A stretch of DNA of 64,000 nt, from assembly GCA_963620985.1 (NCBI GenBank), contig CAVFCI010000001.1, forward strand, positions 26,093 through 90,092, read 5' to 3'. Source of the DNA: Hallerella sp. Its GTDB lineage: Bacteria > Bacillota > Clostridia > Oscillospirales > Oscillospiraceae. The notes beneath the pieces are model-generated. The model made no database searches. It saw only the letters and a program-made list of their open reading frames with translations, and was not told the origin of the DNA. Shown one piece after another: positions 3,894 through 22,393 of the stretch. Made by a program: the position numbers and the translations under genes. The first letter of the stretch is position 1, and each line of letters starts with the position of its first letter.

Positions 3894-4646
3894 ATGGACA
3901 AGCATGAACTTACGGAGCTGTTAAACCGCGTAGCGGACGGGAGCCTGAGCCCCGACGATGCTGCGCTCAAGCTCAAAATGCAGCCGTTTCAGGAGATAGA
4001 CGGCTATGCAAGGGTAGATCACCACAGGGGCATCCGTCAGGGCGTGCCGGAGGTCATATACGGCGAGGGCAAGGCAAGGGAGCATATACTCGGCATAGCA
4101 AAGGCTATGCTGAAAAACGGTCAGCAGACCGTGCTCATAACGCGCCTGAACGAGGAGGCGGCGGAGTATATAAAGGCGCAGCTGCCGCTTGAATACAACA
4201 GCATGGCGCGTATCGGCATCATCGGACCAATGCCCGAGCCCGGCGGCAAGGGGCGCATCGTCGTTGCGACCGGCGGCACGAGCGATATCCCCGTGGCTGA
4301 GGAAGCCGCCATGACAGCCGAGGCTCTCGGCAACGACGTTCTGCGCCTGTACGACGTGGGCGTTTCGGGCATACACAGGCTTCTTTCAAACATGGACAGC
4401 GTCATGACCGCACGGGTCATAATCGCTGTTGCCGGTATGGAGGGCGCACTGCCGTCGGTCATCGGCGGCCTTGCCGACTGCCCGGTGATAGCCGTACCCA
4501 CGAGCGTGGGCTACGGCGCATCCTTCGGCGGCGTTGCGGCGCTTTTGAGCATGCTCAACTCCTGCGCGAGCGGCATGTCGGTAGTGAATATAGACAACGG
4601 CTTCGGTGCGGGCTACCTTGCCAGCATGATAAACCACCTTGACTGA
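3894..4646 (+). CDS. larB: Nickel-pincer cofactor biosynthesis protein LarB (NaAD carboxylase/hydrolase)
   Basis: AIR-carboxylase-like protein starting MDKHELTELLNRV...DHHR...PEVIYGEGK. AGGAGA RBS before the ATG at 3894. The longer track ORF (3804) overlaps the tRNA and its terminator. Confidence 0.8.
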   Translation: MDKHELTELLNRVADGSLSPDDAALKLKMQPFQEIDGYARVDHHRGIRQGVPEVIYGEGKAREHILGIAKAMLKNGQQTVLITRLNEEAAEYIKAQLPLEYNSMARIGIIGPMPEPGGKGRIVVATGGTSDIPVAEEAAMTAEALGNDVLRLYDVGVSGIHRLLSNMDSVMTARVIIAVAGMEGALPSVIGGLADCPVIAVPTSVGYGASFGGVAALLSMLNSCASGMSVVNIDNGFGAGYLASMINHLD

Positions 4647-4647
4647 T

Positions 4648-5403
4648 ATGGAGCTTAAAGATTTTTTTGCCGAACACAATAAAATAGCGCTGGCCTTCTC
4701 CGGCGGGGCGGACTCGGCGTACCTGCTGTACGCTGCCATATCGAGCGGCGCGGATGTGCAGCCGTACTATGTCAGCTCGCAGCTTCAGCCGGAGTTTGAG
4801 CGCAATGACGCGAGAAGGCTCGCGGTAGAGCTGGGAGCTGAACTGCGTGAGATAAGCCTTGACCTACTGCAAGCTGACGAGGTGACGGCAAATCCCGCAG
4901 ACCGCTGCTATTACTGCAAAAAGCGCATCATGGGAGCTGTACGCGAAGCTGCCCGCGCCGACGGCTACGATACGGTAGCAGACGGCACAAACGCCGACGA
5001 CGACGGAGGCGACCGGCCGGGTATGCGGGTGCTCACGGAGGAGGGCATACTCTCACCGCTGAGGCTCTGCGGCATCACAAAGGCCGAGCTGCGCAGGCTC
5101 TCGCACGAGGCGGGTCTGTTTACATGGAATAAGCCTGCCTATGCATGCCTTGCAACGCGCATCCCGACGGGCGAGAGGATAACTGCGGAAAAGCTCAACG
5201 CTGTCGAAAAGAGCGAGAGCCGCCTGTTCTCGCTCGGCTTCACCGACTTCCGCGTGCGCATGCGCGGCAGCGGAGCGCTGCTGCAATTTACGGCGCGGCA
5301 GCATGAAAAGGCCGAAAACGAATTTGACGCGATAAAGGCGGAGCTTTCAAAATATTTTGACACCGTAAGGCTCGATCCGCAGCCAAGGGAGGAGAGCAAA
5401 TGA
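4648..5403 (+). CDS. larE: ATP-dependent sacrificial sulfur transferase LarE
   Basis: PP-loop motif FSGGADS plus CYYCK. Sits between larB and larC. The start is ambiguous: ATG at 4648 or TTG at 4639. Confidence 0.8.
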   Translation: MELKDFFAEHNKIALAFSGGADSAYLLYAAISSGADVQPYYVSSQLQPEFERNDARRLAVELGAELREISLDLLQADEVTANPADRCYYCKKRIMGAVREAARADGYDTVADGTNADDDGGDRPGMRVLTEEGILSPLRLCGITKAELRRLSHEAGLFTWNKPAYACLATRIPTGERITAEKLNAVEKSESRLFSLGFTDFRVRMRGSGALLQFTARQHEKAENEFDAIKAELSKYFDTVRLDPQPREESK

Positions 5404-10943: not shown

Positions 10944-12155
10944 TTATTTAGGCAACCAAAGTGAGTAACTTAGACTTGCGCTATTTGCAGAAACATAAAA
11001 TGACGTAGCACCGGATAGAGGAATGTTGAAAGAAACATCATACTGTACATTTGAGGTTACAGTATAATTTGCCGAATGAGCTGAGCCCGGATTATAAATA
11101 TTAAATCCCGCAGTCATACCGGATTTGTCAAGTACAACAGTGCCGCTTGATGAAGTATATTTGCACGTTACAGTACCTTTTGCGCCAGTAGTAGTTGATG
11201 TCAGAGAGCCCTTTAGACTGCTGAGTGCAGCGTCAAATGTGTTTGTCGGGAGTCCAAATGCTGACAGGAAGTCAATTATTAGATTCTTTAATAATGTGCT
11301 ACCTTTACCTGCATATGCATTGGAAACACTGTCCAGCGAAAGGACGCTACTGATTTCCGAATTTGAATTTCGAGAAAGCGAAATGGTTATTTTGCTTACA
11401 TATACTTTGCTAACAGTAGAGTTGGCATTGTCGTAATATGTTTTTACAGCACTAATATAAGTTTTGACCTGTGTACCTATTCGTTTGGCATTTGAAGCAT
11501 AGTATACAGACAATGTTTGCCCGTTAACAGATGAAACATTAGCTAGCTTTTTGGTAATAGACCCTTTCTTCACAAAATTTGCATCAACCTCAAGCGGAGA
11601 AACTTCTTCGTCAGAAGGAGAAATAGGTGCGGACTCCAACGAGACATTTGGCCTTACAACATCGACATCATCGGCCATAACACGTTCGCCGAAGGCAAAC
11701 ATAATCTGTGTATCGGAATCAATTAAAGGATTAATAACTATTCCTGCGTTGATTTTGTTTTCACCAACCGATTTTGTAAAACCGGCTGTGAGCGGCAGAT
11801 TGATTTCGCCTATTGAAATTTCGCCGTAGAGAGGTCCGTTCAATATGCTCGAGCCGTCAGTAAGCTCAAGAAGATCAACATCGCCAGCGGCGGTTAAAAG
11901 ATAATCGTTTTCTCTTACACTTATCGTAGCAGACATGCTTACATGGAAAATGTCATCTTTCATGGTGCGCGAAACGTTGTAATTATATTCCGCATCAGCA
12001 TTTCCGGTACCAAAAAGAGCCTCAAATTCATCATTTGTTATAGCGGCTATGGAACTGTTTCCATGCAGAGCAATGCCGTCCGCAAAAGCTGTCACGCCCA
12101 GTGACATCATAATAGCAAATATAAGGACGAAGCACAAGAATTTTCTAAACTTCAT
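10944..12155 (-). CDS. Hypothetical secreted protein, Ser/Thr/Asn-rich, low-GC gene
   Basis: 403-aa ORF with a signal peptide (MKFRKFLCFVLIFAIMMSLGVTAFA). No motif recognised. GC is clearly below the flanks. Confidence 0.55.
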   Translation of the reverse strand: MKFRKFLCFVLIFAIMMSLGVTAFADGIALHGNSSIAAITNDEFEALFGTGNADAEYNYNVSRTMKDDIFHVSMSATISVRENDYLLTAAGDVDLLELTDGSSILNGPLYGEISIGEINLPLTAGFTKSVGENKINAGIVINPLIDSDTQIMFAFGERVMADDVDVVRPNVSLESAPISPSDEEVSPLEVDANFVKKGSITKKLANVSSVNGQTLSVYYASNAKRIGTQVKTYISAVKTYYDNANSTVSKVYVSKITISLSRNSNSEISSVLSLDSVSNAYAGKGSTLLKNLIIDFLSAFGLPTNTFDAALSSLKGSLTSTTTGAKGTVTCKYTSSSGTVVLDKSGMTAGFNIYNPGSAHSANYTVTSNVQYDVSFNIPLSGATSFYVSANSASLSYSLWLPK

Positions 12156-12173
12156 TTTTGTTCTCCTTTGTTT

Positions 12174-12596
12174 TTAGTATTCGGCATATTCGGTGATAGT
12201 GATGGCTTCCGTGTTTTTTGCGTACAGTGTGAATGTTGTCGTGCAGCGGTAGCTGCCGGAGCCGGTGAGCTGCTTTTTAAATGATGTTATCATTCTCGAA
12301 GAGCTTGCGCTGTGGTAAATGTAATTATCTGAGGTGCCGACATTTACCTTGACCCACTTGGTTCCGGACTTTTTTTCGATACAGGTCTTTGCCTTGATCT
12401 TTGTTACATCACTTTTGCCGGAGCATATGAGATTAACAGACGCGCTTCCGCCTTCGGCAATGCGAAATGTAACAGTAGGCTTTGTCGCGTACAGGCTTTG
12501 AAGCTCAATGCCGCCGGACGGCTGCGCGGCATATGCGGAAACGGGCACGCCGGTGACGATCAAAAGACTCAGCATCAGACAGGCGATCCTTTTCAT
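12174..12596 (-). CDS. Hypothetical small secreted protein
   Basis: 140-aa ORF with a signal peptide (LLIVTGVPVSAYA). First gene of the minus-strand run of three secreted/membrane-protein genes (10354-12596). GGGAGGGA RBS. Confidence 0.55.
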   Translation of the reverse strand: MKRIACLMLSLLIVTGVPVSAYAAQPSGGIELQSLYATKPTVTFRIAEGGSASVNLICSGKSDVTKIKAKTCIEKKSGTKWVKVNVGTSDNYIYHSASSSRMITSFKKQLTGSGSYRCTTTFTLYAKNTEAITITEYAEY

Positions 12597-12938: not shown

Positions 12939-12970
12939 GTCAAAAAAGTCTCGCGATGGACTTTTTTGAC
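12939..12970. promoter_or_regulatory. 12-bp inverted repeat GTCAAAAAAGTC-N8-GACTTTTTTGAC
   Basis: Perfect arms. The 8-nt loop contains the ATG at 12956 that opens the track ORF. Confidence 0.55.
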
Positions 12971-13018
12971 AGGCTCAAGATAGACTGTCATCGGAACAGG
13001 GGGGAGAGTGCCTTGCTG

Positions 13019-13588
13019 ATGCTTTATGCAGCCGTCATTGACGATGCGGCTGAAATGAAAAGATTCGAAAAGATATATTATGAATATCGTGATCAGATGT
13101 TCTTTGTCGCAAATGATGTCCTGCACGATGAGCACGAGGCCGAGGATGCTGTGCAGAATGCCTTTATCGGCATAGCCAGAAACATAAGAAGCCTGCCGAC
13201 CGATGATAAGCGCATAGTGCGTGCGTATACGCTGACGGCGGCGAAGAATGCGGCGCTCAATCTTCTTCCGCAGAAACAGCGGCGCGATATGCAGCTTGAT
13301 ATAGATGAGGTGGATATTGCCGCCGACGAGGATGTTTTTGCTCAGATCGCGGCCTCCGAGGACAGAGAGACGATATCAAAGGTGATAGGGAAGCTGCCGG
13401 ATATATACAGAGACGTGCTGCTGCTGCGCTGTGTCTGCGGACTTAAAGCCGCGCAGACGGCGCAGCTGCTCGGACGAAAAAAGGCGACTGTCGAAAAGCA
13501 GATGGAAAGAGCGCGAAAGCTTGTGGTCAGGCTGTGCATCGAGGAAGGGATGGTGCTTAAACGTGGAAAAAACGATGACGGTATTTGA
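13019..13588 (+). CDS. ECF-type sigma-70 family RNA polymerase sigma factor
   Basis: Region 2 (FEKIYYEYRDQMFFVANDVL, DAVQNAFIGI) and region 4 HTH (YRDVLLLRCVCGLKAAQTAQLLGRKKATVEKQMERARKLV). The ATG at 13019 follows a GGGGGAGAG RBS. The alternative start at 12956 sits inside a hairpin. Confidence 0.8.
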   Translation: MLYAAVIDDAAEMKRFEKIYYEYRDQMFFVANDVLHDEHEAEDAVQNAFIGIARNIRSLPTDDKRIVRAYTLTAAKNAALNLLPQKQRRDMQLDIDEVDIAADEDVFAQIAASEDRETISKVIGKLPDIYRDVLLLRCVCGLKAAQTAQLLGRKKATVEKQMERARKLVVRLCIEEGMVLKRGKNDDGI

Positions 13589-14330
13589 AAACGCACTTTT
13601 GAATAAGACGCTGCAAGGCTTTGACTATGTCCCTGACGCAGAGAGCATAAAGCATGAATTTTCCCCGCGCTTTGAAAGAGAAGCCCGAGGGCTCATCAAA
13701 AAAAGCGCCTCGAATGTCTGGCACTGCGTGAACACGACCGCAAAAAAGCTGCTTATCGCGGCGATAATAGCGGCGCTGCTCACGGGCACGGTTTTTGCCG
13801 TCCCCGCGCTGAGGGAGGGGCTTATCAGAATGTTTATTCATGACGACGGCAGCATGTATTCCTTCAGCGTTGACCGGAGCATGATAGCAAACGCGCCGAC
13901 GGAGATCGAAACGGCCTATTCTTTGACGTATATTCCTGATGGCTATGAGCTCGTTGACACAGTAGCTGTCCGTGAAGGTGTCGTATTACTTGACTATATG
14001 GATGAAAACGACGGCTGGATATGGTTCATGCAGGAGACCGTCACGCAGGATCCTCGCAATAAGCTCGGCGGACTGTCGGATTCCGAACGCTCGGAGCTTG
14101 AGCATGTCGTGCTCAACGGCTATGAGGTGATACGGATAGTCCACGAGGAAGGCGAAGTAGAGTTCTTGTGGACGGATGACAAGTATTTCTTCGAGCTGTT
14201 CTGCTCAAAGGGCGGCATCGACGAGGCCGAAAAAATATTCTACGGCGTAAAGCCCGATGCCCCGCTCACGCAGAGGATAGCAAACGGCGAAAGCATAATG
14301 GAAGGCAAACATGTCATGGATTTGGATTGA
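13575..14330 (+). CDS. DUF4367-type putative anti-sigma factor (single TM)
   Basis: Overlaps the sigma gene stop. Short cytoplasmic N-terminus, TM helix (LLIAAIIAALLTGTVFAV), then an extracytoplasmic domain with the YIPDGYEL motif typical of DUF4367. Confidence 0.65.
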   Translation: MTVFENALLNKTLQGFDYVPDAESIKHEFSPRFEREARGLIKKSASNVWHCVNTTAKKLLIAAIIAALLTGTVFAVPALREGLIRMFIHDDGSMYSFSVDRSMIANAPTEIETAYSLTYIPDGYELVDTVAVREGVVLLDYMDENDGWIWFMQETVTQDPRNKLGGLSDSERSELEHVVLNGYEVIRIVHEEGEVEFLWTDDKYFFELFCSKGGIDEAEKIFYGVKPDAPLTQRIANGESIMEGKHVMDLD

Positions 14331-14342
14331 TACTGAATACTG

Positions 14343-14380
14343 ACCGCGTTTTTCCGCTTCGGAAAGGCGCGGTTTTTGTT
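14343..14380 (+). terminator. Rho-independent terminator
   Basis: ACCGCGTTTTTCCG-CTTC-GGAAAGGCGCGGT followed by TTTTGTTG. Confidence 0.65.
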
Positions 14381-14419
14381 GTGTCTTATTAAGAAAGCTG
14401 ATATAATAAACTGATTAAA

Positions 14420-14585
14420 TACTGCCTGCGGTGCTGCATGACGCAGCCTAACAAGGAATTCGGTGCAAATCCGAAGCAGTCCCGCTGCCGTGAATGGCGA
14501 CGAGGGCGCATTGGCCACTGTTTTTAAACTGACGGGAAGGCGCGCCTGAGCTTGACCCATGAGCCGGAAGACTTGCCGCAGCGCG
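14420..14585 (+). promoter_or_regulatory. Cobalamin (B12) riboswitch
   Basis: P1 halves CTGCGG (14426) and CCGCAG (14576). Core GGTGCAAATCCGAAGCAGTCCCGCTGCCGTGAA, a GGGAAGG element, and B12 box GAGCCGGAAGACTTGCC (14561-14577). Confidence 0.8.
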
Positions 14586-14703
14586 TGTGTTTGAAATTCT
14601 GAGGAGGTGGGATATATGCGCGAGGACGCATGGACGCTCAATATTACCTACGAGTAGAGCTGAAAAAAAGAAAAACCAAAACAATTTACTTGGAGGTAAA
14701 AAC

Positions 14704-17154
14704 ATGAAAAAAAGATCACTGAGCCTGCTTCTGGCTCTCTTAATGGTGCTCAGCCTCATCGTGCCCGGCACGGCGGCATTTGCCGACGATGCCTCGCAGT
14801 GGCCGAGCTTCCGCGGCAGCGATACGAACATGGCGATAAGCGCAGCCGAAACTCCGGCCGACGCGCAGCACACAACGCTCAAGTGGGCAAACACACTTTC
14901 CAGCGATTGGAGCAAAGCACCCTCCGCGCCGATAATCGCCGGCGATAAGCTCGTCACCCTGTGCGGCGATGAGCTCACGCTGCTCTCGCTTGACGACGGC
15001 AGCGTTGTAAAAACGGCAAAAATGCACAGCAGCACAAGCTTCGGCCTTGCAGCTGCGACCTATGCCGGCGGCCTTATCATAGCTCCGCTGGACAAGGGCG
15101 GCATCGAGGCCTTTGATGCCGAAACGCTTGAAAGCAAATGGGTCTATACCGATGAGCTCGGCGGACAGGCATCCTCTCCCGTTCTGTATTCCGACGGAAA
15201 GCTCTATGTCGGCTTCTGGAACAATGAGACCGAGGATGCAAGCTTCGTCTGCGTCGATGCCGAGACCGGTAGCCTCGACTGGAGCTATACCGTAAAGGGC
15301 GGCTTCTACTGCGCAGGCGCTGTCGCGGTCGGAGATTTTGTGCTTGTCGGCAGCGACGACGGCGCTAAGGGCTCCGAGGGCGACGGTATGCTGCGCGCAT
15401 TCAAAAAGAGCTACGCGGCAAGCGAGGAGGTTAAGCCCGTATCGAGCGCCGCGCTCACCGGCTGCGGCGATGTGCGGTGCAGCCTAGCATACTCCGACGG
15501 CAGGGTCTACTTCACCACCAAGGGCGGCTATCTCGGCTCGGCAGCCGTTGACGGTGCATCAGGCGCGATAGACGATGTCAAGACCGTTTCCTTCGGCGCG
15601 CAGAGCACCTCAACGCCCGTTGTCTACGGCGGCTACGTTTACTTCGGCGCGGGCAAGGGCTTTAACGACCCGGGCATGTTCGTCATTGCGGATAAGGACA
15701 GCCTTGAGGTCAAGAACACAGTCGAGCTGAAGGGCTACGCGCAGTGCTCGATGCTCCTGTCAACCGCCTACCTCGAGTCCGAGGGCTATCTGTATTTCTA
15801 CAGCACCTACAATACAACGCCCGGCGGTGTTTCGCTCATAAAGGTCAAGGCCGACGACGTGAGCAAAACGGAGCTTGTCGATATCTTCGACGCGGCAGGC
15901 TATGAAAACTACTGCATTTGCAGCATCATCTGCGATGCAGACGGCGATCTCTATTACAAAAACGACAGCGGCACGATCTTCTGCCTGAGCAATGAGTACA
16001 GCGAGGAGATCCTCGTGAGCATTGCAAACAAGGGCGGCGTCGAGCTCAGCTACGCCTCCGTCACCGCCTCCGACCGCAACGACGACGGTATCATCGACAT
16101 TGACGAGGTGCTGTACGCCGCGCACGATAAATATTACGACGGCGGCGCAGCAGCAGGCTATGCCAGCGCAAGCAGCGAATACGGCGCGTATATCGCAAAG
16201 CTCTGGGGCGACGAAAGCGGCAGCTTCGGCTATTTTGTCGATAACAAAATGGCCATGAGCCTTGGCGACAAGGTCGTGGCAGGCCAGCATGTCTATGCCT
16301 ATGTAAACGCAAACGCATATCCCAATAACGATTCATACGCCTATTTTGAAAGCTCATCGGCAGACACCGCGGCTTATGCGGCAGTGACCATTAAGCTCAC
16401 AGCGCAGAACGGTTATGATGAAAACTGGAGCCCGAAGTTCGAGGCTTATGACAAGGCTCAGCTCAAGGCTTACAGTGCAGACCTCAAGACCGAGGCGGAG
16501 GGCTTCACGGCAGCGTCGCTCGGAAACGGCGAGTATAAGCTCAGCTTCAAGAGCGCCGGTGAGTACCTCGTCGTCGCAGCGGCAGAAAATAACGCGATCA
16601 TCCCCGCGGTGTGCAGGGTAAGCGTTAAGGAAACCGCTGGCTTTTCCGATGTAAGCAGCGACAGCTATTACTACGATGCCGCAATGTGGGGCAGCGCGAA
16701 CGCCGTGGTCAACGGCTACGGAAACGGCGAGTTCCGCCCCGACGGTCAGTGCACCCGTGCCCAGATCGTGAGCTTCCTCTACCGTCTGGCAGGCAGCCCC
16801 GAGGTCAGCGGCGAGTGCAGCTTCAGTGACGTTCCCGACAGCTACTATAAGAATGCCGTTATCTGGGCAGCGGAGAACAAGGTCACAAACGGCACGACCG
16901 CCGATACCTTCTCCCCGAACGCCGTGTGCACCCGCGCACAGGCAATGACCATGCTCTACCGCTATCTCGGCGCACCCGAATATGAGGCCGGCAGCGGCTT
17001 TGCCGATGTCGCCGACGGCGCATTCTATGCCGATGCGGTCATGTGGGCGGCGGCAAGCGGCGTGGCCAAGGGCTATAATGACGGCGCCTTCCGTCCCAAC
17101 GCTGTGTGTACCCGCGCACAGATCGTAACGTTTATCTACCGCGCAGCTGCGTGA
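14704..17154 (+). CDS. Cell-surface PQQ-like beta-propeller protein with three C-terminal SLH domains
   Basis: Signal peptide MKKRSLSLLLALLMVLSLIVPGTAAFA. PQQ-like repeats (WPSFRG..., LSLDDGSVV, AFDAETLESKW, CVDAETGSLDW). Three SLH repeats (FSDV...YYYDAAMW..., FSDVPDSYYKNAVIW..., FADVADGAFYADAVMW...). GGAGG RBS before the ATG at 14704. Confidence 0.75.
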   Translation: MKKRSLSLLLALLMVLSLIVPGTAAFADDASQWPSFRGSDTNMAISAAETPADAQHTTLKWANTLSSDWSKAPSAPIIAGDKLVTLCGDELTLLSLDDGSVVKTAKMHSSTSFGLAAATYAGGLIIAPLDKGGIEAFDAETLESKWVYTDELGGQASSPVLYSDGKLYVGFWNNETEDASFVCVDAETGSLDWSYTVKGGFYCAGAVAVGDFVLVGSDDGAKGSEGDGMLRAFKKSYAASEEVKPVSSAALTGCGDVRCSLAYSDGRVYFTTKGGYLGSAAVDGASGAIDDVKTVSFGAQSTSTPVVYGGYVYFGAGKGFNDPGMFVIADKDSLEVKNTVELKGYAQCSMLLSTAYLESEGYLYFYSTYNTTPGGVSLIKVKADDVSKTELVDIFDAAGYENYCICSIICDADGDLYYKNDSGTIFCLSNEYSEEILVSIANKGGVELSYASVTASDRNDDGIIDIDEVLYAAHDKYYDGGAAAGYASASSEYGAYIAKLWGDESGSFGYFVDNKMAMSLGDKVVAGQHVYAYVNANAYPNNDSYAYFESSSADTAAYAAVTIKLTAQNGYDENWSPKFEAYDKAQLKAYSADLKTEAEGFTAASLGNGEYKLSFKSAGEYLVVAAAENNAIIPAVCRVSVKETAGFSDVSSDSYYYDAAMWGSANAVVNGYGNGEFRPDGQCTRAQIVSFLYRLAGSPEVSGECSFSDVPDSYYKNAVIWAAENKVTNGTTADTFSPNAVCTRAQAMTMLYRYLGAPEYEAGSGFADVADGAFYADAVMWAAASGVAKGYNDGAFRPNAVCTRAQIVTFIYRAAA

Positions 17155-17162
17155 TACATTAA

Positions 17163-18206
17163 ATGAAAAAAAGATCGGCATCACTTTTATTCTGCGTTCT
17201 CATTATATGCAGCCTGCTTGCAGGCTGCATGAGAAACGTCGAGGCCGTAAGCTTCGCCGGAGACATTGAGCTCGGCGAGGACGGCATTGTAAAAAAAGAG
17301 GTTCTCGAGCAGCTTATAAGTGCAAACGAGATAGCCTCCATATGCGGAAAAAACGGCGGGTACAGCTATAAATGGACGGTGTCCGGCGCTGATATCGGAC
17401 AGCCGCGCGAGCTGTGCATGGCCGTCGATATCACGGAAAACGCCGACGGCAGCGTCAGAGCCGCCCTCAAAAGCGGCGAGAGCTTCGGCTTTCTCCCCAC
17501 GCTGTCGATAACGCTCGATAATAAGTGGGACGCGCTTTCGGCAGACGTTTACGATACCGAGGGCAATAAGCTGTCCACGGCCTCCGTTACGGGCAGCGGG
17601 AGCACGACCCTGAGCTTCAAGCTCACAGACGGCGTTTTCACCTACATCATCCGTGCTGCCGAACAAACGCCCGCGCCGGAGAGCAGCGCCAAGCTCTCCG
17701 ACGGCAGCCGCACCGAGCAGGATAAGTACAAAACAGATCCCGTTCCGAGCGGTAAGCCCGAGCCGGTCGAGCCGTCGAGTGCTCCCGTTGACGAGAAAAA
17801 GCTGCTGCACTGCACGGTGTCGATAGACTGCATGACCATACTCGACAATCTCGGAGAGCTCAAGCCGGAAAAGCTTGATGTCCTGCCGTCGGACGGCGTT
17901 ATTCTAAAGGCCGTCAGCGTCGAGCTATATGAGGGCGAGTCGGTGTACGACGTTTTGCAGCGCGTGTGCCGCGACTACGGCATACAGCTTGAGGCGGCCT
18001 TCACTCCGGCGTATAACAGCGCCTATGTCGAGGGCATCGGCAACCTCTACGAAAAGGACTGCGGAACGCTGTCGGGCTGGACATATCTGGTCAACGGCTG
18101 GCAGCCCAACTACGGCTGCAGCCGCTATGCGCTGCATGACGGCGACAGGGTGGAGTGGCGCTATACCTGCGATCTCGGCGCGGACGTGGGAGGCGGGATG
18201 CTCTGA
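17163..18206 (+). CDS. Lipoprotein with C-terminal DUF4430 (transcobalamin-like) domain
   Basis: Lipobox LLAGC. C-terminal segment ESVYDVLQRV...GWTYLVNGWQPNYGCSRYALHDGDRVEWRY fits the DUF4430 pattern. Confidence 0.7.
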   Translation: MKKRSASLLFCVLIICSLLAGCMRNVEAVSFAGDIELGEDGIVKKEVLEQLISANEIASICGKNGGYSYKWTVSGADIGQPRELCMAVDITENADGSVRAALKSGESFGFLPTLSITLDNKWDALSADVYDTEGNKLSTASVTGSGSTTLSFKLTDGVFTYIIRAAEQTPAPESSAKLSDGSRTEQDKYKTDPVPSGKPEPVEPSSAPVDEKKLLHCTVSIDCMTILDNLGELKPEKLDVLPSDGVILKAVSVELYEGESVYDVLQRVCRDYGIQLEAAFTPAYNSAYVEGIGNLYEKDCGTLSGWTYLVNGWQPNYGCSRYALHDGDRVEWRYTCDLGADVGGGML

Positions 18207-19096
18207 TGAAGGACGCTTTTTCCGGACTGCATCCGGCGGTGAGCCTTGCGTATTTTGCCGCCGTGCTGACGCTCACGATGCTGTACATGCATCCGCTGCT
18301 GCTCATTCTGAGCCTCATAGCCTCGGCAGGCTATGTCTGCATCTTGAAGGGTGCGCGGCACTTTGCCAAAACGCTCCTGTGCCTTGTGCCCTTTCTCATA
18401 CTCATGTCGCTCATAAACGCCCTGTTTAACCACGGCGGCGTTACGCCGCTGTATTATCTGCCAAACGGCAATGCGATAACCGCGGAGGCTCTCACCTTCG
18501 GCTTCTTCGCCTCGGTGATGTTCTGCGCCGTGATACTGTGGTTTGACTGCTTTAACGCCGTCATGACCTCGGATAAGCTGCTGTTTCTGTTCGGCAGGCT
18601 CAGCCCCTCGCTGTCGCTGCTGCTGTCAATGTCGCTGCGCCTTGTGCCCAAGCTCGGGCGCAAAATACGCAGCATCGACGCGGCGCGTGCCCAGATAGGC
18701 CGCGGCAGTGCGCAGGGCAGCTTTTTCAACCGCGTAAAAAACAGCATGGACGTGCTGTCCGTAACGCTCACATGGGCGCTCGAAAGCTCCGTAACGGCGG
18801 CAAGCTCAATGAAAAGCAGGGGCTGCGGCGCGGCACGGCGGACGAGCTTTTCACTGTATAAATTCGAGCTGCGCGACGGCATAACGCTTGCCGTGTGCGC
18901 GCTTTCGGCGGGCGTGACCGTCGCCTGCGTTCTCGGCGGCGGAATTTACGCACGCTACTATCCCTCGGTCATAATAAGCGGCTTCGGCGGCGCGTCCGCG
19001 CCGGGCACTGCGGCGTTTGCACTGCTGTGCTTTGCACCCCAGCTTTTTGATGCAAAGGAGGCTCTCGTATGGCGGCGTTTGAGATCCGCGATCTGA
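18206..19096 (+). CDS. ECF transporter transmembrane (T) component, CbiQ/EcfT family
   Basis: Polytopic membrane protein with the ARAQIGRG-type coupling-helix motif. TGATG overlap with the upstream stop. Confidence 0.7.
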   Translation: MKDAFSGLHPAVSLAYFAAVLTLTMLYMHPLLLILSLIASAGYVCILKGARHFAKTLLCLVPFLILMSLINALFNHGGVTPLYYLPNGNAITAEALTFGFFASVMFCAVILWFDCFNAVMTSDKLLFLFGRLSPSLSLLLSMSLRLVPKLGRKIRSIDAARAQIGRGSAQGSFFNRVKNSMDVLSVTLTWALESSVTAASSMKSRGCGAARRTSFSLYKFELRDGITLAVCALSAGVTVACVLGGGIYARYYPSVIISGFGGASAPGTAAFALLCFAPQLFDAKEALVWRRLRSAI

Positions 19097-20652
19097 GCTT
19101 TACATATCCAAACGAAAATAAGCCTGCCCTCGAGCATATCACGATGGACATTCCCGAGGGCGGGATAACTCTAATATGCGGTGCGAGCGGCAGCGGAAAG
19201 AGCACGCTCCTGCGCAGGCTGAAAAGCTGCCTTGCAGATCACGGCAGGGCAGAGGGGGAGCTGCTGTTTTTAGGCAGAGCCCTGAACGATGTGCCGGAGG
19301 CGGAGCAGGCGCGGCGCATAGGCTTCGTGTTCCAGCATCCGGACGATCAGATAGTGACCGACAAGGTCTTTCACGAGCTCGCCTTCGGACCGGAAAGCCT
19401 CGGCTGGGATCAGAGAAAAATGCGCCTTGCCGTCGCCGAGATGGCAAGCTATTTCGGCCTTTCCGAGCTTTTCGACAAGAACGTCGCCGAGCTCTCAGGC
19501 GGCCAGAAGCAGCTCGTGAACCTCGCCTCTGCCGCTGTCCTGCGGCCTGACGTGCTCGTCCTTGACGAGCCGACGAGTCAGCTCGACCCCATTGCCGCGG
19601 CGGATTTTCTGGCGACTGTGCGCAAATTGAACGAGGATCTCGGCCTGACCGTCATACTCACCGAGCACAGGCTCGAGGAGGCACTGCCGATGGCGGATAT
19701 GCTCGCCGTTCTGGAAAACGGCAGGCTCATTGCCTGTGATGCGCCGCAAAAAGCAGCGATGCAGATAAGAGACAGCGCGGTATTCTCCTCAATGCCCGCT
19801 GCGGTGAAGATATTTGCCGCCCTCGGCGGCGAGGGCGGCGCGCCGCTCACGGTGGGGCAGGGCAGGGCGTTTATCGCCTCGCGCATGCACGATAAGGTTG
19901 ACATAATACAAAAGCCCGCCCATGGGCGCGGCTCACCGGCGGTCGAGCTGAAAAGCTGCTGGTTCAGGTACGAAAAAAACGCGCCCGACGTTCTGCGCGG
20001 CCTTGAGCTTAAGCTGTACGCGGGCGAGATATGCGCTCTGCTCGGCGGCAACGGCTCGGGCAAGAGCACGAGCGTCGGCATCCTCTCCGGCAGGCTGAAG
20101 CCGTATCGCGGCAAGGTGAAGGGCAGCGGCGTTCGCATTGCGGCGCTGCCGCAGGATCCGCGTGAGCTGTTCGTAAAGGACAGGGTGTCAGACGAGCTGC
20201 GCGAGATGGGAGCCGGCGAAGCGGAGCTTGCGCAGCTCGTGCAGTTCCTTGAGCTTGAAGCGCTTCTTGAGCGCCACCCCTTTGACATATCGGGCGGCGA
20301 GCAGCAGCGTCTCGCACTCGGAAAGCTGCTGCTGATACATCCCGATGTGCTGCTGCTCGACGAGCCGACAAAGGGCATGGACGGGCAGCTCAAGCAGCGC
20401 TTCGGCGAGCTTCTGACGAAGCTGCGCGATGAGGGCAAGGCCGTGCTTCTGGTAAGCCACGATATTGAATTCTGCGCACGCTATGCCGGCCGCTGCGCCC
20501 TGCTTTTCAGGGGCGAGATCGTGACGGAGAGCGCGCCGCGCGAATTTTTTTCCGGCAATTTCTTTTATACGACAGCCGCCGCGAAGCTCAGCCGCGGCCT
20601 CATAAACGGAACGGTTCTCTGCGAGGAGGTGATCGAGTGCTTGAAGAAGTGA
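19069..20652 (+). CDS. ECF transporter ATPase, fused duplicated ABC domains (EcfA-EcfA')
   Basis: Two sets of Walker A (GASGSGKST, GGNGSGKST), signature (LSGGQKQ, ISGGEQQ) and Walker B (LVLDEPTS, LLLDEPTK) motifs. Confidence 0.9.
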   Translation: MAAFEIRDLSFTYPNENKPALEHITMDIPEGGITLICGASGSGKSTLLRRLKSCLADHGRAEGELLFLGRALNDVPEAEQARRIGFVFQHPDDQIVTDKVFHELAFGPESLGWDQRKMRLAVAEMASYFGLSELFDKNVAELSGGQKQLVNLASAAVLRPDVLVLDEPTSQLDPIAAADFLATVRKLNEDLGLTVILTEHRLEEALPMADMLAVLENGRLIACDAPQKAAMQIRDSAVFSSMPAAVKIFAALGGEGGAPLTVGQGRAFIASRMHDKVDIIQKPAHGRGSPAVELKSCWFRYEKNAPDVLRGLELKLYAGEICALLGGNGSGKSTSVGILSGRLKPYRGKVKGSGVRIAALPQDPRELFVKDRVSDELREMGAGEAELAQLVQFLELEALLERHPFDISGGEQQRLALGKLLLIHPDVLLLDEPTKGMDGQLKQRFGELLTKLRDEGKAVLLVSHDIEFCARYAGRCALLFRGEIVTESAPREFFSGNFFYTTAAAKLSRGLINGTVLCEEVIECLKK

Positions 20653-21338
20653 AGCATAAGCGCATTGCGATCGCCGTTGCGGTGCTCGTGCTGTCTGCGG
20701 CAATAATAGCCGTCGAAACATATCTGTGGAACAACCGCAAGTATTACCTGACCTCGCTTATCATCATACTGCTTGCCATGCTGCCGTTTTTCGCCCGCTT
20801 CGAGGGGCGCAGGCCGCAGGTGCGTGAGCTCGTGCTGCTCGCGGTGATGACGGCCTTCGCCGTCGCGGGGCGTGCGGCGTTTTACTGGGCACCGCAGCTC
20901 AAGCCCGTGTGCGCGATAGTGATCTTAACGGCTGCGGCCTTTAACGCCGAGGCGGGATTTATAACCGGTGCTGCGTCCGGCCTCATATCCAATATGTTCT
21001 TCGGACAGGGACCGTGGACACCATGGCAGATGCTCGGCTTCGGACTCGTCGGCTTTTTTGCCGGAGTGCTGTTTTCCGGCAGGGAGGTGAAAACGGCGCC
21101 GCTCCTGCTCTACGGCTTTTTCTCGGTGCTCATCATTTACGGTATCCTGCTGGACACGGGCTCGCTTCTCATGTATTCGCAGGACGTGAGCATAGCCGCG
21201 CTTACGGCAATGTACGCATCGGGCTTTTCCTTTAACCTTGTCCACGCAGCCGGCACGGTGCTGTTCCTGCTCCTGCTGAAGGGACCTGTGCTGTCAAAGC
21301 TGCGGCGCATAAAAATAAAATACGGGATGATGATTTGA
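20637..21338 (+). CDS. ECF transporter substrate-specific (S) component, B12-type by context
   Basis: 233-aa protein with 6 TM helices. GTG start 8 nt after a GAGGAGG RBS. Last gene of the riboswitch-controlled cluster. Substrate is inferred from context only. Confidence 0.55.
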   Translation: MLEEVKHKRIAIAVAVLVLSAAIIAVETYLWNNRKYYLTSLIIILLAMLPFFARFEGRRPQVRELVLLAVMTAFAVAGRAAFYWAPQLKPVCAIVILTAAAFNAEAGFITGAASGLISNMFFGQGPWTPWQMLGFGLVGFFAGVLFSGREVKTAPLLLYGFFSVLIIYGILLDTGSLLMYSQDVSIAALTAMYASGFSFNLVHAAGTVLFLLLLKGPVLSKLRRIKIKYGMMI

Positions 21339-21576: not shown

Positions 21577-21605
21577 TTGACGTTGAAATTGCATGATGCT
21601 ACAAT
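21577..21605 (+). promoter_or_regulatory. Sigma-A-like promoter of the NTPase/kor operon
   Basis: TTGACG, 17-nt spacer, TACAAT. Confidence 0.5.
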
Positions 21606-21652
21606 ATATATGTGTTTGAATGCGTTCATATAATGAACGGAGGTTACTTTCA

Positions 21653-22393
21653 ATGAAGAATGTTAAGGTTCTTATCGGCAACTACGGCAGCGGCAAAAGC
21701 GAGCTTGCGCTCAATTTTGCGATCCAGGCCGCAGCTCGCGGAGACAGGACAGAGCTTATAGACCTTGATATGGTCAATACATATTTCAGACTTACCGAGC
21801 GCGGCAAGATGGTCGAGCAGAAGGAGATCAGGCTCGTATCTCCCAACTATGCCTGCTCGGGCATTGAAACGCTCTCCCTTCCGGCGGAGGTCGCCTCGGC
21901 CTTTGTCCTTGACTGGGACACGGTCGTGTTCGATGTCGGCGGCGACGATGTCGGCGCAACGGCGCTGGGGCGCTATCATCAGGACTTCGTTGAGCTTGAG
22001 CCCGGCGCTCTGGAGGTGCTCAATGTCGTCAATATCCGCAGACCGCTGTCCGGCACGGTGGAGAAGCTCATAAGGCTTCAGGAGGGAATGCAGGCGCATT
22101 CGAGGCTCCAGATAACCGGCATGATAAACAACACGAACCTTGCGACGGAAACCTCCGTCGAGGAGCTGCGCGACGGCTATGAGATGCTCAGGGAGGTCTC
22201 TGACAGGACGGGCATCCCCGTTGCGTATACGACAGGAAAGAAGGATCTGCTCGAGCAGTTCCTCGCCGAGGGACACGATCCGAAATATATCGGCAAGCCC
22301 ATTCCCATAGATGTGTACATGCACCGTGACTGGGATTCGTACATCAAATACGGACTGCACACGGTAGACCCGCAGAAAAACTTCAAGCATTGA
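21653..22393 (+). CDS. Uncharacterised P-loop NTPase (MinD/ParA-like fold suspected)
   Basis: Walker A GNYGSGKS within 20 aa of the N-terminus and a Walker-B-like VVFDVGGDD. GGAGG RBS before the ATG at 21653. Confidence 0.55.
   Translation: MKNVKVLIGNYGSGKSELALNFAIQAAARGDRTELIDLDMVNTYFRLTERGKMVEQKEIRLVSPNYACSGIETLSLPAEVASAFVLDWDTVVFDVGGDDVGATALGRYHQDFVELEPGALEVLNVVNIRRPLSGTVEKLIRLQEGMQAHSRLQITGMINNTNLATETSVEELRDGYEMLREVSDRTGIPVAYTTGKKDLLEQFLAEGHDPKYIGKPIPIDVYMHRDWDSYIKYGLHTVDPQKNFKH

Follow-up and report, generated by a model that had tools for sequence, protein, structure and literature searches.

The window analysed here, a 64,000-nucleotide stretch of contig CAVFCI010000001.1 (assembly GCA_963620985.1, placed in the Oscillospiraceae), contains a cobalamin riboswitch followed by five genes on the plus strand. 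In order, these encode a beta-propeller protein that ends in S-layer homology (SLH) repeats, a lipoprotein with a DUF4430 domain, and the T component, fused A-A' ATPase, and S component of an energy-coupling factor (ECF) transporter (Table 1). The genes are tightly packed, with 8 nucleotides between the first two and overlaps of 1, 28, and 16 nucleotides at the following junctions. Because the preceding sigma/anti-sigma gene pair closes with a terminator-like hairpin whose last position is 14374, and a promoter-like site for the following gene lies downstream of the S component, the transcription unit can be delimited to 14412-21338. An original prediction, made from the letters alone, had described this riboswitch and the five co-directional genes, and all of them are present. 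The region is probably a single cobalamin-riboswitch operon for corrinoid scavenging in an SLH-bearing, uncultured Clostridium of Oscillospiraceae type. The score of the riboswitch and the preservation of the whole arrangement in other genomes rule out chance as its origin.

Table 1. Features of the cobalamin-riboswitch locus and its surroundings, in positions of the window
Feature	Position	Strand	Evidence or content
Cobalamin riboswitch aptamer (RF00174)	14412-14594	+	cmscan 112.5 bits, E 2.2e-27, model positions 1-189 of 189
B12 box GAGCCGGAAGACTTGCC	14561-14577		inside the aptamer
Expression platform without intrinsic terminator	14595-14703	+	Shine-Dalgarno SD1, 13-codon leader open reading frame, helix masking the ribosome-binding site
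SD1 (GAGGAGG), Shine-Dalgarno of the leader open reading frame	14601-14607		perfect
Leader open reading frame MREDAWTLNITYE	14616-14657		13 codons and stop
Predicted masking helix	14644-14658 / 14685-14699		minimum free energy fold, z -2.9
Shine-Dalgarno (GGAGG) of the propeller gene	14692-14696		
Gene 1, secreted wall-anchored propeller protein, 816 residues	14704-17154	+	Pfam, AlphaFold, Foldseek
Invariant His474 of gene 1	16123-16125		middle module
SLH repeats of gene 1	16630-17151		
Gene 2, lipoprotein, 347 residues	17163-18206	+	lipobox, Pfam DUF4430, AlphaFold, Foldseek
Pro-rich segment of gene 2	17721-17774		DKY.TDPVP.GKP.PVEP
Gene 3, ECF T component, CbrU/CbiQ-like	18206-19096	+	TIGR02454, PDB EcfT, orthologue PF02361
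Gene 4, fused A-A' ATPase, CbrV-like	19069-20652	+	ABC_tran E 2.4e-50, two stretches; TIGR04521/TIGR04520 about 288 bits
Gene 5, ECF S component, CbrT homologue	20637-21338	+	PF07155 E 7e-9; CbrT 6FNP_A
Terminator-like hairpin of the preceding gene pair	14342-14374		
Promoter-like site for the following gene	21577-21605		
Extracytoplasmic function-type sigma factor and overlapping anti-sigma-like membrane protein	12956-14330		Sigma70_r2/r4_2; DUF4367
Two secreted proteins, divergent orientation	10944-12596		no Pfam match
CbiA/ParA-like P-loop ATPase gene	21620-22393		
Protein with N-terminal TIR domain and leucine-rich repeats, 519 residues	6661-8220		TIR E 1e-19

The propeller protein begins with a cleavable signal peptide (residues 1-27; MKKRSLSLLLALLMVLSLIVPGTAAFA), followed by a propeller of eight blades that extends to about residue 432, a middle module (residues 433-642), and three SLH repeats at the C terminus (residues 643-816). 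Pfam recognizes both the propeller, through the pyrroloquinoline quinone (PQQ)-related family PQQ_2 (PF13360; E 1.4e-12, 48.2 bits against a cut-off of 27.6), and the anchor (SLH; E 6.4e-35, 119.3 bits, three stretches, matching residues 647-816), in agreement with the secreted, PQQ-like, SLH-bearing protein that had been proposed. The AlphaFold model, built on an alignment of 70 relatives, has a mean predicted local distance difference test score (pLDDT) of 92, and its strand pattern resolves into eight four-stranded blades. In a Foldseek search, its nearest structures are the eight-bladed BamB (E values down to 3.9e-18) and PQQ enzymes, at 11-18% identity, and the designed eight-bladed propeller Cake8 aligns with a template modeling (TM) score of 0.83 and a root mean square deviation (rmsd) of 3.8 Å. 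Polar or aromatic loop residues that are invariant in the family lie in the motifs YSTYN..PGG, LYYKNDSG, GD.RSS, and AQSTSTP. The family is large, comprising 714 clusters (50% identity) at E ≤ 1e-30, and within it the propeller is always accompanied by anchor and spacer domains of the SLH, choline-binding, leucine-rich repeat, or cadherin-like type.

The original prediction had gone on to suggest that this protein may be a functional analogue of BtuG, the seven-bladed propeller of Bacteroides (PMC13616437). Kinship with BtuG was rejected on the grounds of the eight blades, of the absence of BtuG from the top 50 Foldseek matches, and of the lack of any BtuG match at E ≤ 10 in a PDB profile search. 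Nor does the signal peptide of gene 1 contain a lipobox like that of a lipidated BtuG, the anchor here being SLH, and no BtuB-like partner gene is found in the window operon. Of the interpretation as a whole, the parts and their link to B12 have thus stood, and a kinship with BtuG, if one is read into it, has not.

Between propeller and anchor, the conserved middle module of about 200 residues contains an EF-hand-like DxNxDGxIDxxE loop followed by a sandwich resembling prealbumin and CarboxypepD_reg domains (PDB profile search, and Pfam scan of 17 members). Depending on the relative, it is found on either side of the propeller. Beside the EF-hand-like loop, within the motif ..DEVLYAAHE.YY.GGAA.GY.., lies an invariant histidine (residue 474) that could serve as a cobalt ligand. 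The module was also considered as a cryptic DUF4430 domain, an assignment that is unsupported at the sequence level (hhalign probability about 1%, hmmsearch E about 1-7).

The lipoprotein starts with a signal sequence and lipobox (LLAGC; MKKRSASLLFCVLIICSLLAGC), whose Cys22 is invariant in 44 homologues, and continues with an N-terminal beta-sandwich (residues 30-165), a Pro-rich segment (residues 187-204), and the DUF4430 region (residues 209-340). Pfam places DUF4430 (PF14478) at residues 258-335 with 57.7 bits against a cut-off of 23.8, and in the AlphaFold model (pLDDT 87, predicted TM score 0.79) this domain adopts the fold of the transcobalamin beta domain, as its name in the original annotation had implied. 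Foldseek aligns it to the beta domain of human transcobalamin (5no0) with a TM score of 0.77, an rmsd of 2.7 Å, and a probability of 1.00, and all 19 of the 19 matches at E ≤ 1e-3 are to transcobalamin, intrinsic factor, haptocorrin, or the uncharacterised bacterial DUF4430 structure 3U7Z. Searches of the PDB transcobalamin chains with gene 2, as a single sequence or as a profile, gave no match, so the link to transcobalamin is one of fold comparison. Pfam detects no alpha6-alpha6 toroid (prenyltransferase/SQHop_cyclase-like) in the five proteins of the window, which thus do not include a full transcobalamin-type carrier. The lipoprotein family as a whole yields more than 4,900 matches. Its Pro-rich segment is invariant in the 44 homologues at about 50% overall identity; a passive linker would not be expected to be anywhere near so conserved, and the segment may instead be a docking or ligand-contact site.

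The remaining three genes encode the transporter. The start codon of the T component overlaps the stop codon of the lipoprotein (TGATG), and this protein is the weakest assignment of the set: the CbiQ model TIGR02454 matches below its cut-off (E 1.6e-3) and the EcfT chain 5d3m_D in the PDB at E 1.2e-4. Its orthologues carry PF02361, and in them the proposed EcfT/CbiQ-like identity is firm. The double ATPase bears two ABC_tran domains and matches the ECF ATPase models, as expected from the earlier reading. The S component belongs to PF07155, and its residues 59-230 align with residues 6-177 of Lactobacillus delbrueckii CbrT (6FNP_A; E 5.3e-10), the only PDB match at E ≤ 10; no CbiM or CbiN signature was found in it by Pfam and PDB searches. 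With the T component, two ATPase domains, and S component encoded together in overlapping genes, the transporter has the organization of a group I, or dedicated, ECF system. CbrT has been found experimentally to carry cobalamin and cobinamide (PMC5997447), and cbrUVT is an established predicted signature for the uptake of B12 or a B12 precursor (PMC6593275, PMC8123684). By homology, the S component is thus predicted to be the corrinoid-specific membrane carrier.

Upstream of these genes, the aptamer matches the whole of the Rfam model at a score well beyond the gathering score of 31.5 bits, which places the cobalamin riboswitch and its B12 box, first recognized from the letters alone, on a firm footing. 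Terminator hairpins with U-runs follow the aptamer in more distant loci, and none is present in the window or its clade. The platform of the window holds a short leader open reading frame (ORF) with its own Shine-Dalgarno sequence, the 3' end of which is predicted to pair with the ribosome-binding site (RBS) of the propeller gene. This RBS-masking helix is present in most of 18 individually folded loci, and 93% of its cells are paired; the pairs are almost invariant, and covariation is therefore uninformative here. In several loci, the individual folds also show a variable upstream arm able to pair with the region of the leader start.

Across 18 genome loci, and across 48 contigs of human-gut metagenomes that were found by its exact pattern, a leader stretch of about 55 nucleotides hardly varies, and it always lies about 101 nucleotides ahead of the propeller gene, even as the identity of the propeller product drops to 43%. 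Variation within the leader ORF consists of synonymous changes, TAG or TGA stops at the same position, one in-frame insertion of 3 nucleotides, and few amino-acid replacements, a pattern that fits a translated ORF. The leader thus looks like a riboswitch-gated leader-peptide relay, in which translation of the leader would unmask the RBS of the propeller gene.

The association of the propeller with B12 extends well beyond the window. A scan of one genome per species revealed 408 stretches encoding propeller relatives, and the best 80 were taken with 8-kb flanks; represented among them are Oscillospiraceae, Lachnospiraceae, Christensenellaceae, Eubacteriaceae, and Proteiniclasticum. When eight diverse loci were scanned with Rfam, RF00174 lay upstream of the gene in six, and a covariance model built from the Rfam matches gave 61 matches in 1.29 Mb, all in the orientation of the propeller gene and 0 on the opposite strand. 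Taken together, a cobalamin riboswitch lies upstream on the same strand at 56 of the 80 loci (53 by our own covariance model and 3 by Rfam), and tblastn finds a DUF4430 gene in 71 and genes for the T component and A-A' ATPase in 67. The survey of co-occurrence that had been called for along with the original prediction is thus strongly positive.

The arrangement of these genes is variable. The ECF genes may follow the propeller gene, precede it (L072, L076, and L078), or be divergent from it (L037 and L047), and the order of the S and T components is changed in four (L046, L049, L053, and L077). In L021, separate riboswitches stand before the propeller gene and before the DUF4430-ECF genes (2012-2211 and 4596-4797 of that locus), and two or three cobalamin riboswitches per module occur also in L052, L061, L079, and L050, so that the two tiers appear to be separately regulable. 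At three further loci (L019, L026, and L031), a stand-alone propeller gene is the immediate neighbour of its own upstream riboswitch, and tblastn finds neither DUF4430 nor ECF genes there (about 8 kb); the sequence of L031 ends soon after the propeller gene. A fourth locus, L024, is nearly of this kind, its weak DUF4430-like match lying inside the propeller gene itself. The link of the propeller family to B12 is strong.

Two observations from the same survey concern the make-up of the loci and their sources. In loci of the Lachnospiraceae and Christensenella types, a conserved gene of about 290-300 codons, whose product has no Pfam match, follows the S component (for example L039 13918-14820 and L054 14033-14908); it is absent from the window and possibly belongs to the module as well. 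Nine contigs with the operon (L005, L009, L011, L015, L033, L036, L043, L049, and L066) come from bins labelled Collinsella aerofaciens, Bacteroidaceae, Phascolarctobacterium, Escherichia coli, or Bacteroides sp., and are almost certainly mis-binned.

The majority of the distant relatives of the propeller are giant surface proteins of 1,000-1,600 residues, in which a signal peptide is followed by a DUF4430 domain, a cadherin-like domain, and the propeller, and then by SLH, choline-binding, collagen, or leucine-rich repeat anchors. Fusions of DUF4430 and propeller are found in P0044, P0046, P0079, P0086, P0088-90, L054, and L077, and the transcobalamin-beta-like domain and the propeller are thus often part of one polypeptide. 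In the lineage of the window, the DUF4430 and cadherin-like parts at the N terminus of the large protein have been lost, which leaves the propeller, the middle module, and the SLH repeats; the sole DUF4430 domain of the operon is the one on the neighbouring lipoprotein.

A second type of operon reveals what can stand at the position of the propeller. The six closest lipoprotein homologues without a propeller neighbour (L081-L087) lie in Ruminococcus-type loci, all of which encode, in this order, a dockerin protein of 660-930 residues, a small cohesin membrane anchor, the DUF4430 lipoprotein, the T component, and the A-A' ATPase, the last often fused to the S component (for example L083 4280-12744). 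Three such loci were searched with our covariance model, which places a cobalamin riboswitch ahead of the genes in two, L081 and L083. In these two, a direct Pfam scan of the large protein finds DUF4430, a prenyltransferase/SQHop alpha-alpha toroid, and a dockerin, with a cadherin-like domain also present in L083. The alpha domain of transcobalamin belongs to the same fold class as this toroid. The first 230-260 residues of the toroid protein are 46-49% identical to the N termini of P0090 and L077 (E 1e-59 and 2e-58), and beyond this shared region there follows a toroid in the Ruminococcus-type protein and a propeller in P0090 and L077. The propeller therefore fills the slot of the domain with which transcobalamin closes over its corrinoid. 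The layout of the Ruminococcus-type operons also suggests that a private dockerin-cohesin pair serves here to anchor a protein for vitamin capture and not an enzyme of a cellulosome.

The identities of the parts, their folds, and the conserved association of their genes come directly from these comparisons. We consider it rather likely that they work as a full relay, with capture by the propeller, hand-over by the lipoprotein, import by the ECF transporter, and repression through the riboswitch. The propeller protein would capture or concentrate corrinoids in the zone of the wall or S-layer, either by itself or jointly with a DUF4430 domain, the two enclosing the ligand in the way that the alpha toroid and beta domain enclose it in transcobalamin. 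The lipoprotein at the membrane would next receive the ligand and deliver it to the S component, with ATP hydrolysis driving import, and a high intracellular concentration of adenosylcobalamin would cause the riboswitch to shut the operon off. In the clade of the window, this shut-off would probably act through translation of the leader ORF, the passage of ribosomes opening the helix that masks the RBS. That either helper binds corrinoids, and in which order they are handed over, we infer from gene context, the fusions, and the exchange of toroid for propeller; how the operon is regulated, and in which direction, is likewise inferred.

Several results weigh against this relay or limit its support. 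Twenty-four of the 80 loci have no riboswitch; several of these end 0.1-2.4 kb upstream or start inside the operon, and in two of them, L030 and L072, a loss of upstream sequence is not obvious. The 18 closest loci form one clade that shares the operon of the window by descent, which makes the number of independent observations smaller than 80. As the association of propeller and B12 survives rearrangement of the genes elsewhere, this caveat of a single clade does not undo the linkage. Among the structures nearest to the propeller, BamB and the PQQ enzymes, none is a corrinoid binder, and the invariant residues of gene 1 include the usual structural tryptophan-docking motifs, for which reason no ligand pocket can be defined in the propeller. 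No covariation indicative of a kissing loop was seen between loop L5 of the aptamer and the platform, the loops being short, variable, and devoid of clear complementarity. A transcript search of public runs found no usable RNA run; RNA runs were listed by species label only, and even the best runs, of unstated type, share at most 20% of the words sampled. Finally, a homologous system of Lactobacillus sakei has been reported to act in haem uptake (10.1101/864751).

Among the alternatives to the relay, the one that fares best, though we regard it as unlikely, takes the propeller as a wall-anchored scaffold or receptor in a B12 system, with the DUF4430 domains doing the binding of free corrinoid. 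As a scaffold, the propeller might dock the DUF4430 lipoprotein, for example via the Pro-rich segment; as a receptor, it might recognize corrinoid-loaded haptocorrin or intrinsic factor of the host, or binding proteins or vesicles of other bacteria. Propellers of the BamB type are typically platforms for protein interaction, and the constant company of anchor and spacer domains would suit such a role, as would the invariant, linker-like segment of the lipoprotein. DUF4430 is also alone among these parts in having a demonstrated corrinoid-binding fold. However, the Pro-rich motif is equally conserved in the lipoproteins of the Ruminococcus-type operons, in which the propeller is missing, and is therefore not specific to the propeller. 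Moreover, the propeller replaces a toroid like that of the transcobalamin alpha domain, a toroid that makes direct contact with the ligand in transcobalamin, and the riboswitch-controlled propellers that stand alone in L019, L026, and L031 have no DUF4430 gene within about 8 kb.

It is improbable that the ligand is haem, another tetrapyrrole, or cobalt, with the riboswitch merely coordinating the supply of precursors. The experimental link of the L. sakei homologue to haem speaks for this reading, as does the regulation of CbiMNQO cobalt transporters by B12 riboswitches, given that the T component and ATPase of the window resemble CbiQ and CbiO. Against it stand the S component, which matches CbrT alone in the PDB and bears no CbiM or CbiN signature; the accessory domain, which has the beta-domain fold of cobalamin carriers; the cobalamin riboswitches of the surveyed loci; and the use of cbrUVT as a signature of B12 or B12-precursor uptake. 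That the propeller-SLH gene encodes an unrelated surface protein that happens to share a transcript with the transporter is hardly credible: the inheritance of one operon by the 18 closest loci, whose agreement is not independent, and the abundance of PQQ-like propeller surface proteins in Clostridia would allow it, but the survey has largely refuted it, through an association kept in distant lineages with rearranged gene orders, stand-alone copies under riboswitch control, covalent fusions to DUF4430, and the strict strand bias of the riboswitch matches.

Going beyond the relay as set out above, the comparison with the Ruminococcus-type operons raises the tentative idea, which we put forward as possible rather than likely, of a widespread, modular "split transcobalamin" at the surface of Clostridia. 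DUF4430 would be partnered either with the ancestral toroid or, as in the window, with an unrelated eight-bladed propeller that would have assumed the part of the toroid in closing over the corrinoid, and the pair would feed an ECF transporter. A beta-propeller would thus have been recruited for B12 capture a second, independent time, in convergence with BtuG of Bacteroides. In the clade of the window, the riboswitch would act through a leader peptide whose translation unmasks the RBS.

The surroundings of the operon contain a number of further genes (Table 1). Directly upstream lie the genes for the sigma factor and the overlapping anti-sigma-like membrane protein, and before these, in divergent orientation, those for the two secreted proteins. 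The CbiA/ParA-like ATPase gene follows the operon after a gap of 280 nucleotides and has its own promoter-like site. The protein with an N-terminal Toll/interleukin-1 receptor (TIR) domain and leucine-rich repeats is unrelated to the operon and may act in defence or signalling.

There is competition for corrinoids in the gut, and the machinery for their capture is known in molecular detail for Bacteroides only. For Gram-positive Firmicutes, according to a review of 2026, the capture of cobamides outside the cell "remains entirely uncharacterized" (PMC13616437). The locus described here provides a concrete and widespread set of candidates for extracellular B12 scavenging by Gram-positive gut bacteria, and two of its carriers, Proteiniclasticum ruminis ML2 (L077) and Eubacterium barkeri VPI 5359 (L072), can be cultivated. 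ECF transporters are textbook importers that need no soluble binding protein. If the relay holds true, the view of these transporters as working without extracytoplasmic binding proteins would need revision, and propellers would prove to have been put to convergent use in B12 capture. A literature search, with most subscription journals outside its scope, found no PQQ-like propeller and no SLH or dockerin-cohesin anchoring tied to B12 uptake.

The likeness to the BtuG/BtuH/BtuJ relay of Bacteroides (BtuG2, PDB: 8BMZ) lies in the placement of riboswitch-controlled surface accessories, one of them a beta-propeller, beside a B12 transporter, and the locus would share with it the logic of capture and hand-over in several tiers (PMC13616437). 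The architecture is different: BtuG is a seven-bladed protein lipidated on the outer membrane and complexed with the TonB-dependent BtuB, whereas the window combines an eight-bladed, BamB/PQQ-like propeller with an SLH anchor and an ECF importer. With BamB, YxaL, and the PQQ-dependent dehydrogenases, the propeller has in common the eight-bladed fold and the tryptophan-docking repeats of PF13360. It is distant from those proteins in sequence, and its setting as a secreted, SLH-anchored, and B12-regulated protein has nothing to do with outer-membrane protein assembly or alcohol oxidation.

The mammalian carriers transcobalamin, intrinsic factor, and haptocorrin share their beta-domain fold with the C terminus of the lipoprotein, and the counterpart of their toroid is found in the Ruminococcus-type operons. 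The window departs from them in having no alpha toroid, in bearing its beta-like domain on a lipoprotein with an unrelated N-terminal beta-sandwich, and in placing a propeller where the toroid would be. Among published systems, the nearest precedent for an ECF transporter with secreted transcobalamin-like proteins is lsa1836-1840 of L. sakei, which encodes an ECF S component, a fused A-A' ATPase, and a T component together with the secreted Lsa1839, transcobalamin beta-like, and Lsa1840, alpha-like (10.1101/864751). Judged by its published description, this system resembles the window in combining a CbrT-like ECF transporter with extracellular transcobalamin-like helpers that are proposed to pass the ligand to the S component; it differs in its assignment to haem and its alpha-toroid protein, and in lacking a propeller, an SLH anchor, and a reported riboswitch.

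The transporter itself is best compared with ECF-CbrT of L. delbrueckii (PDB: 6FNP) and the predicted cbrUVT of Rodionov and colleagues, with which it shares a CbrT-homologous S component, an EcfT-like T component, ECF ATPases, and the B12 context (PMC5997447, PMC6593275). ECF-CbrT of L. delbrueckii relies on a shared ECF module and is described with no helpers, whereas the transporter of the window appears to be a dedicated group I system with a fused A-A' ATPase and its own riboswitch. By homology, it is predicted to be a member of the CbrUVT group, and what is new at this locus is the pair of putative extracytoplasmic helpers that accompanies it.

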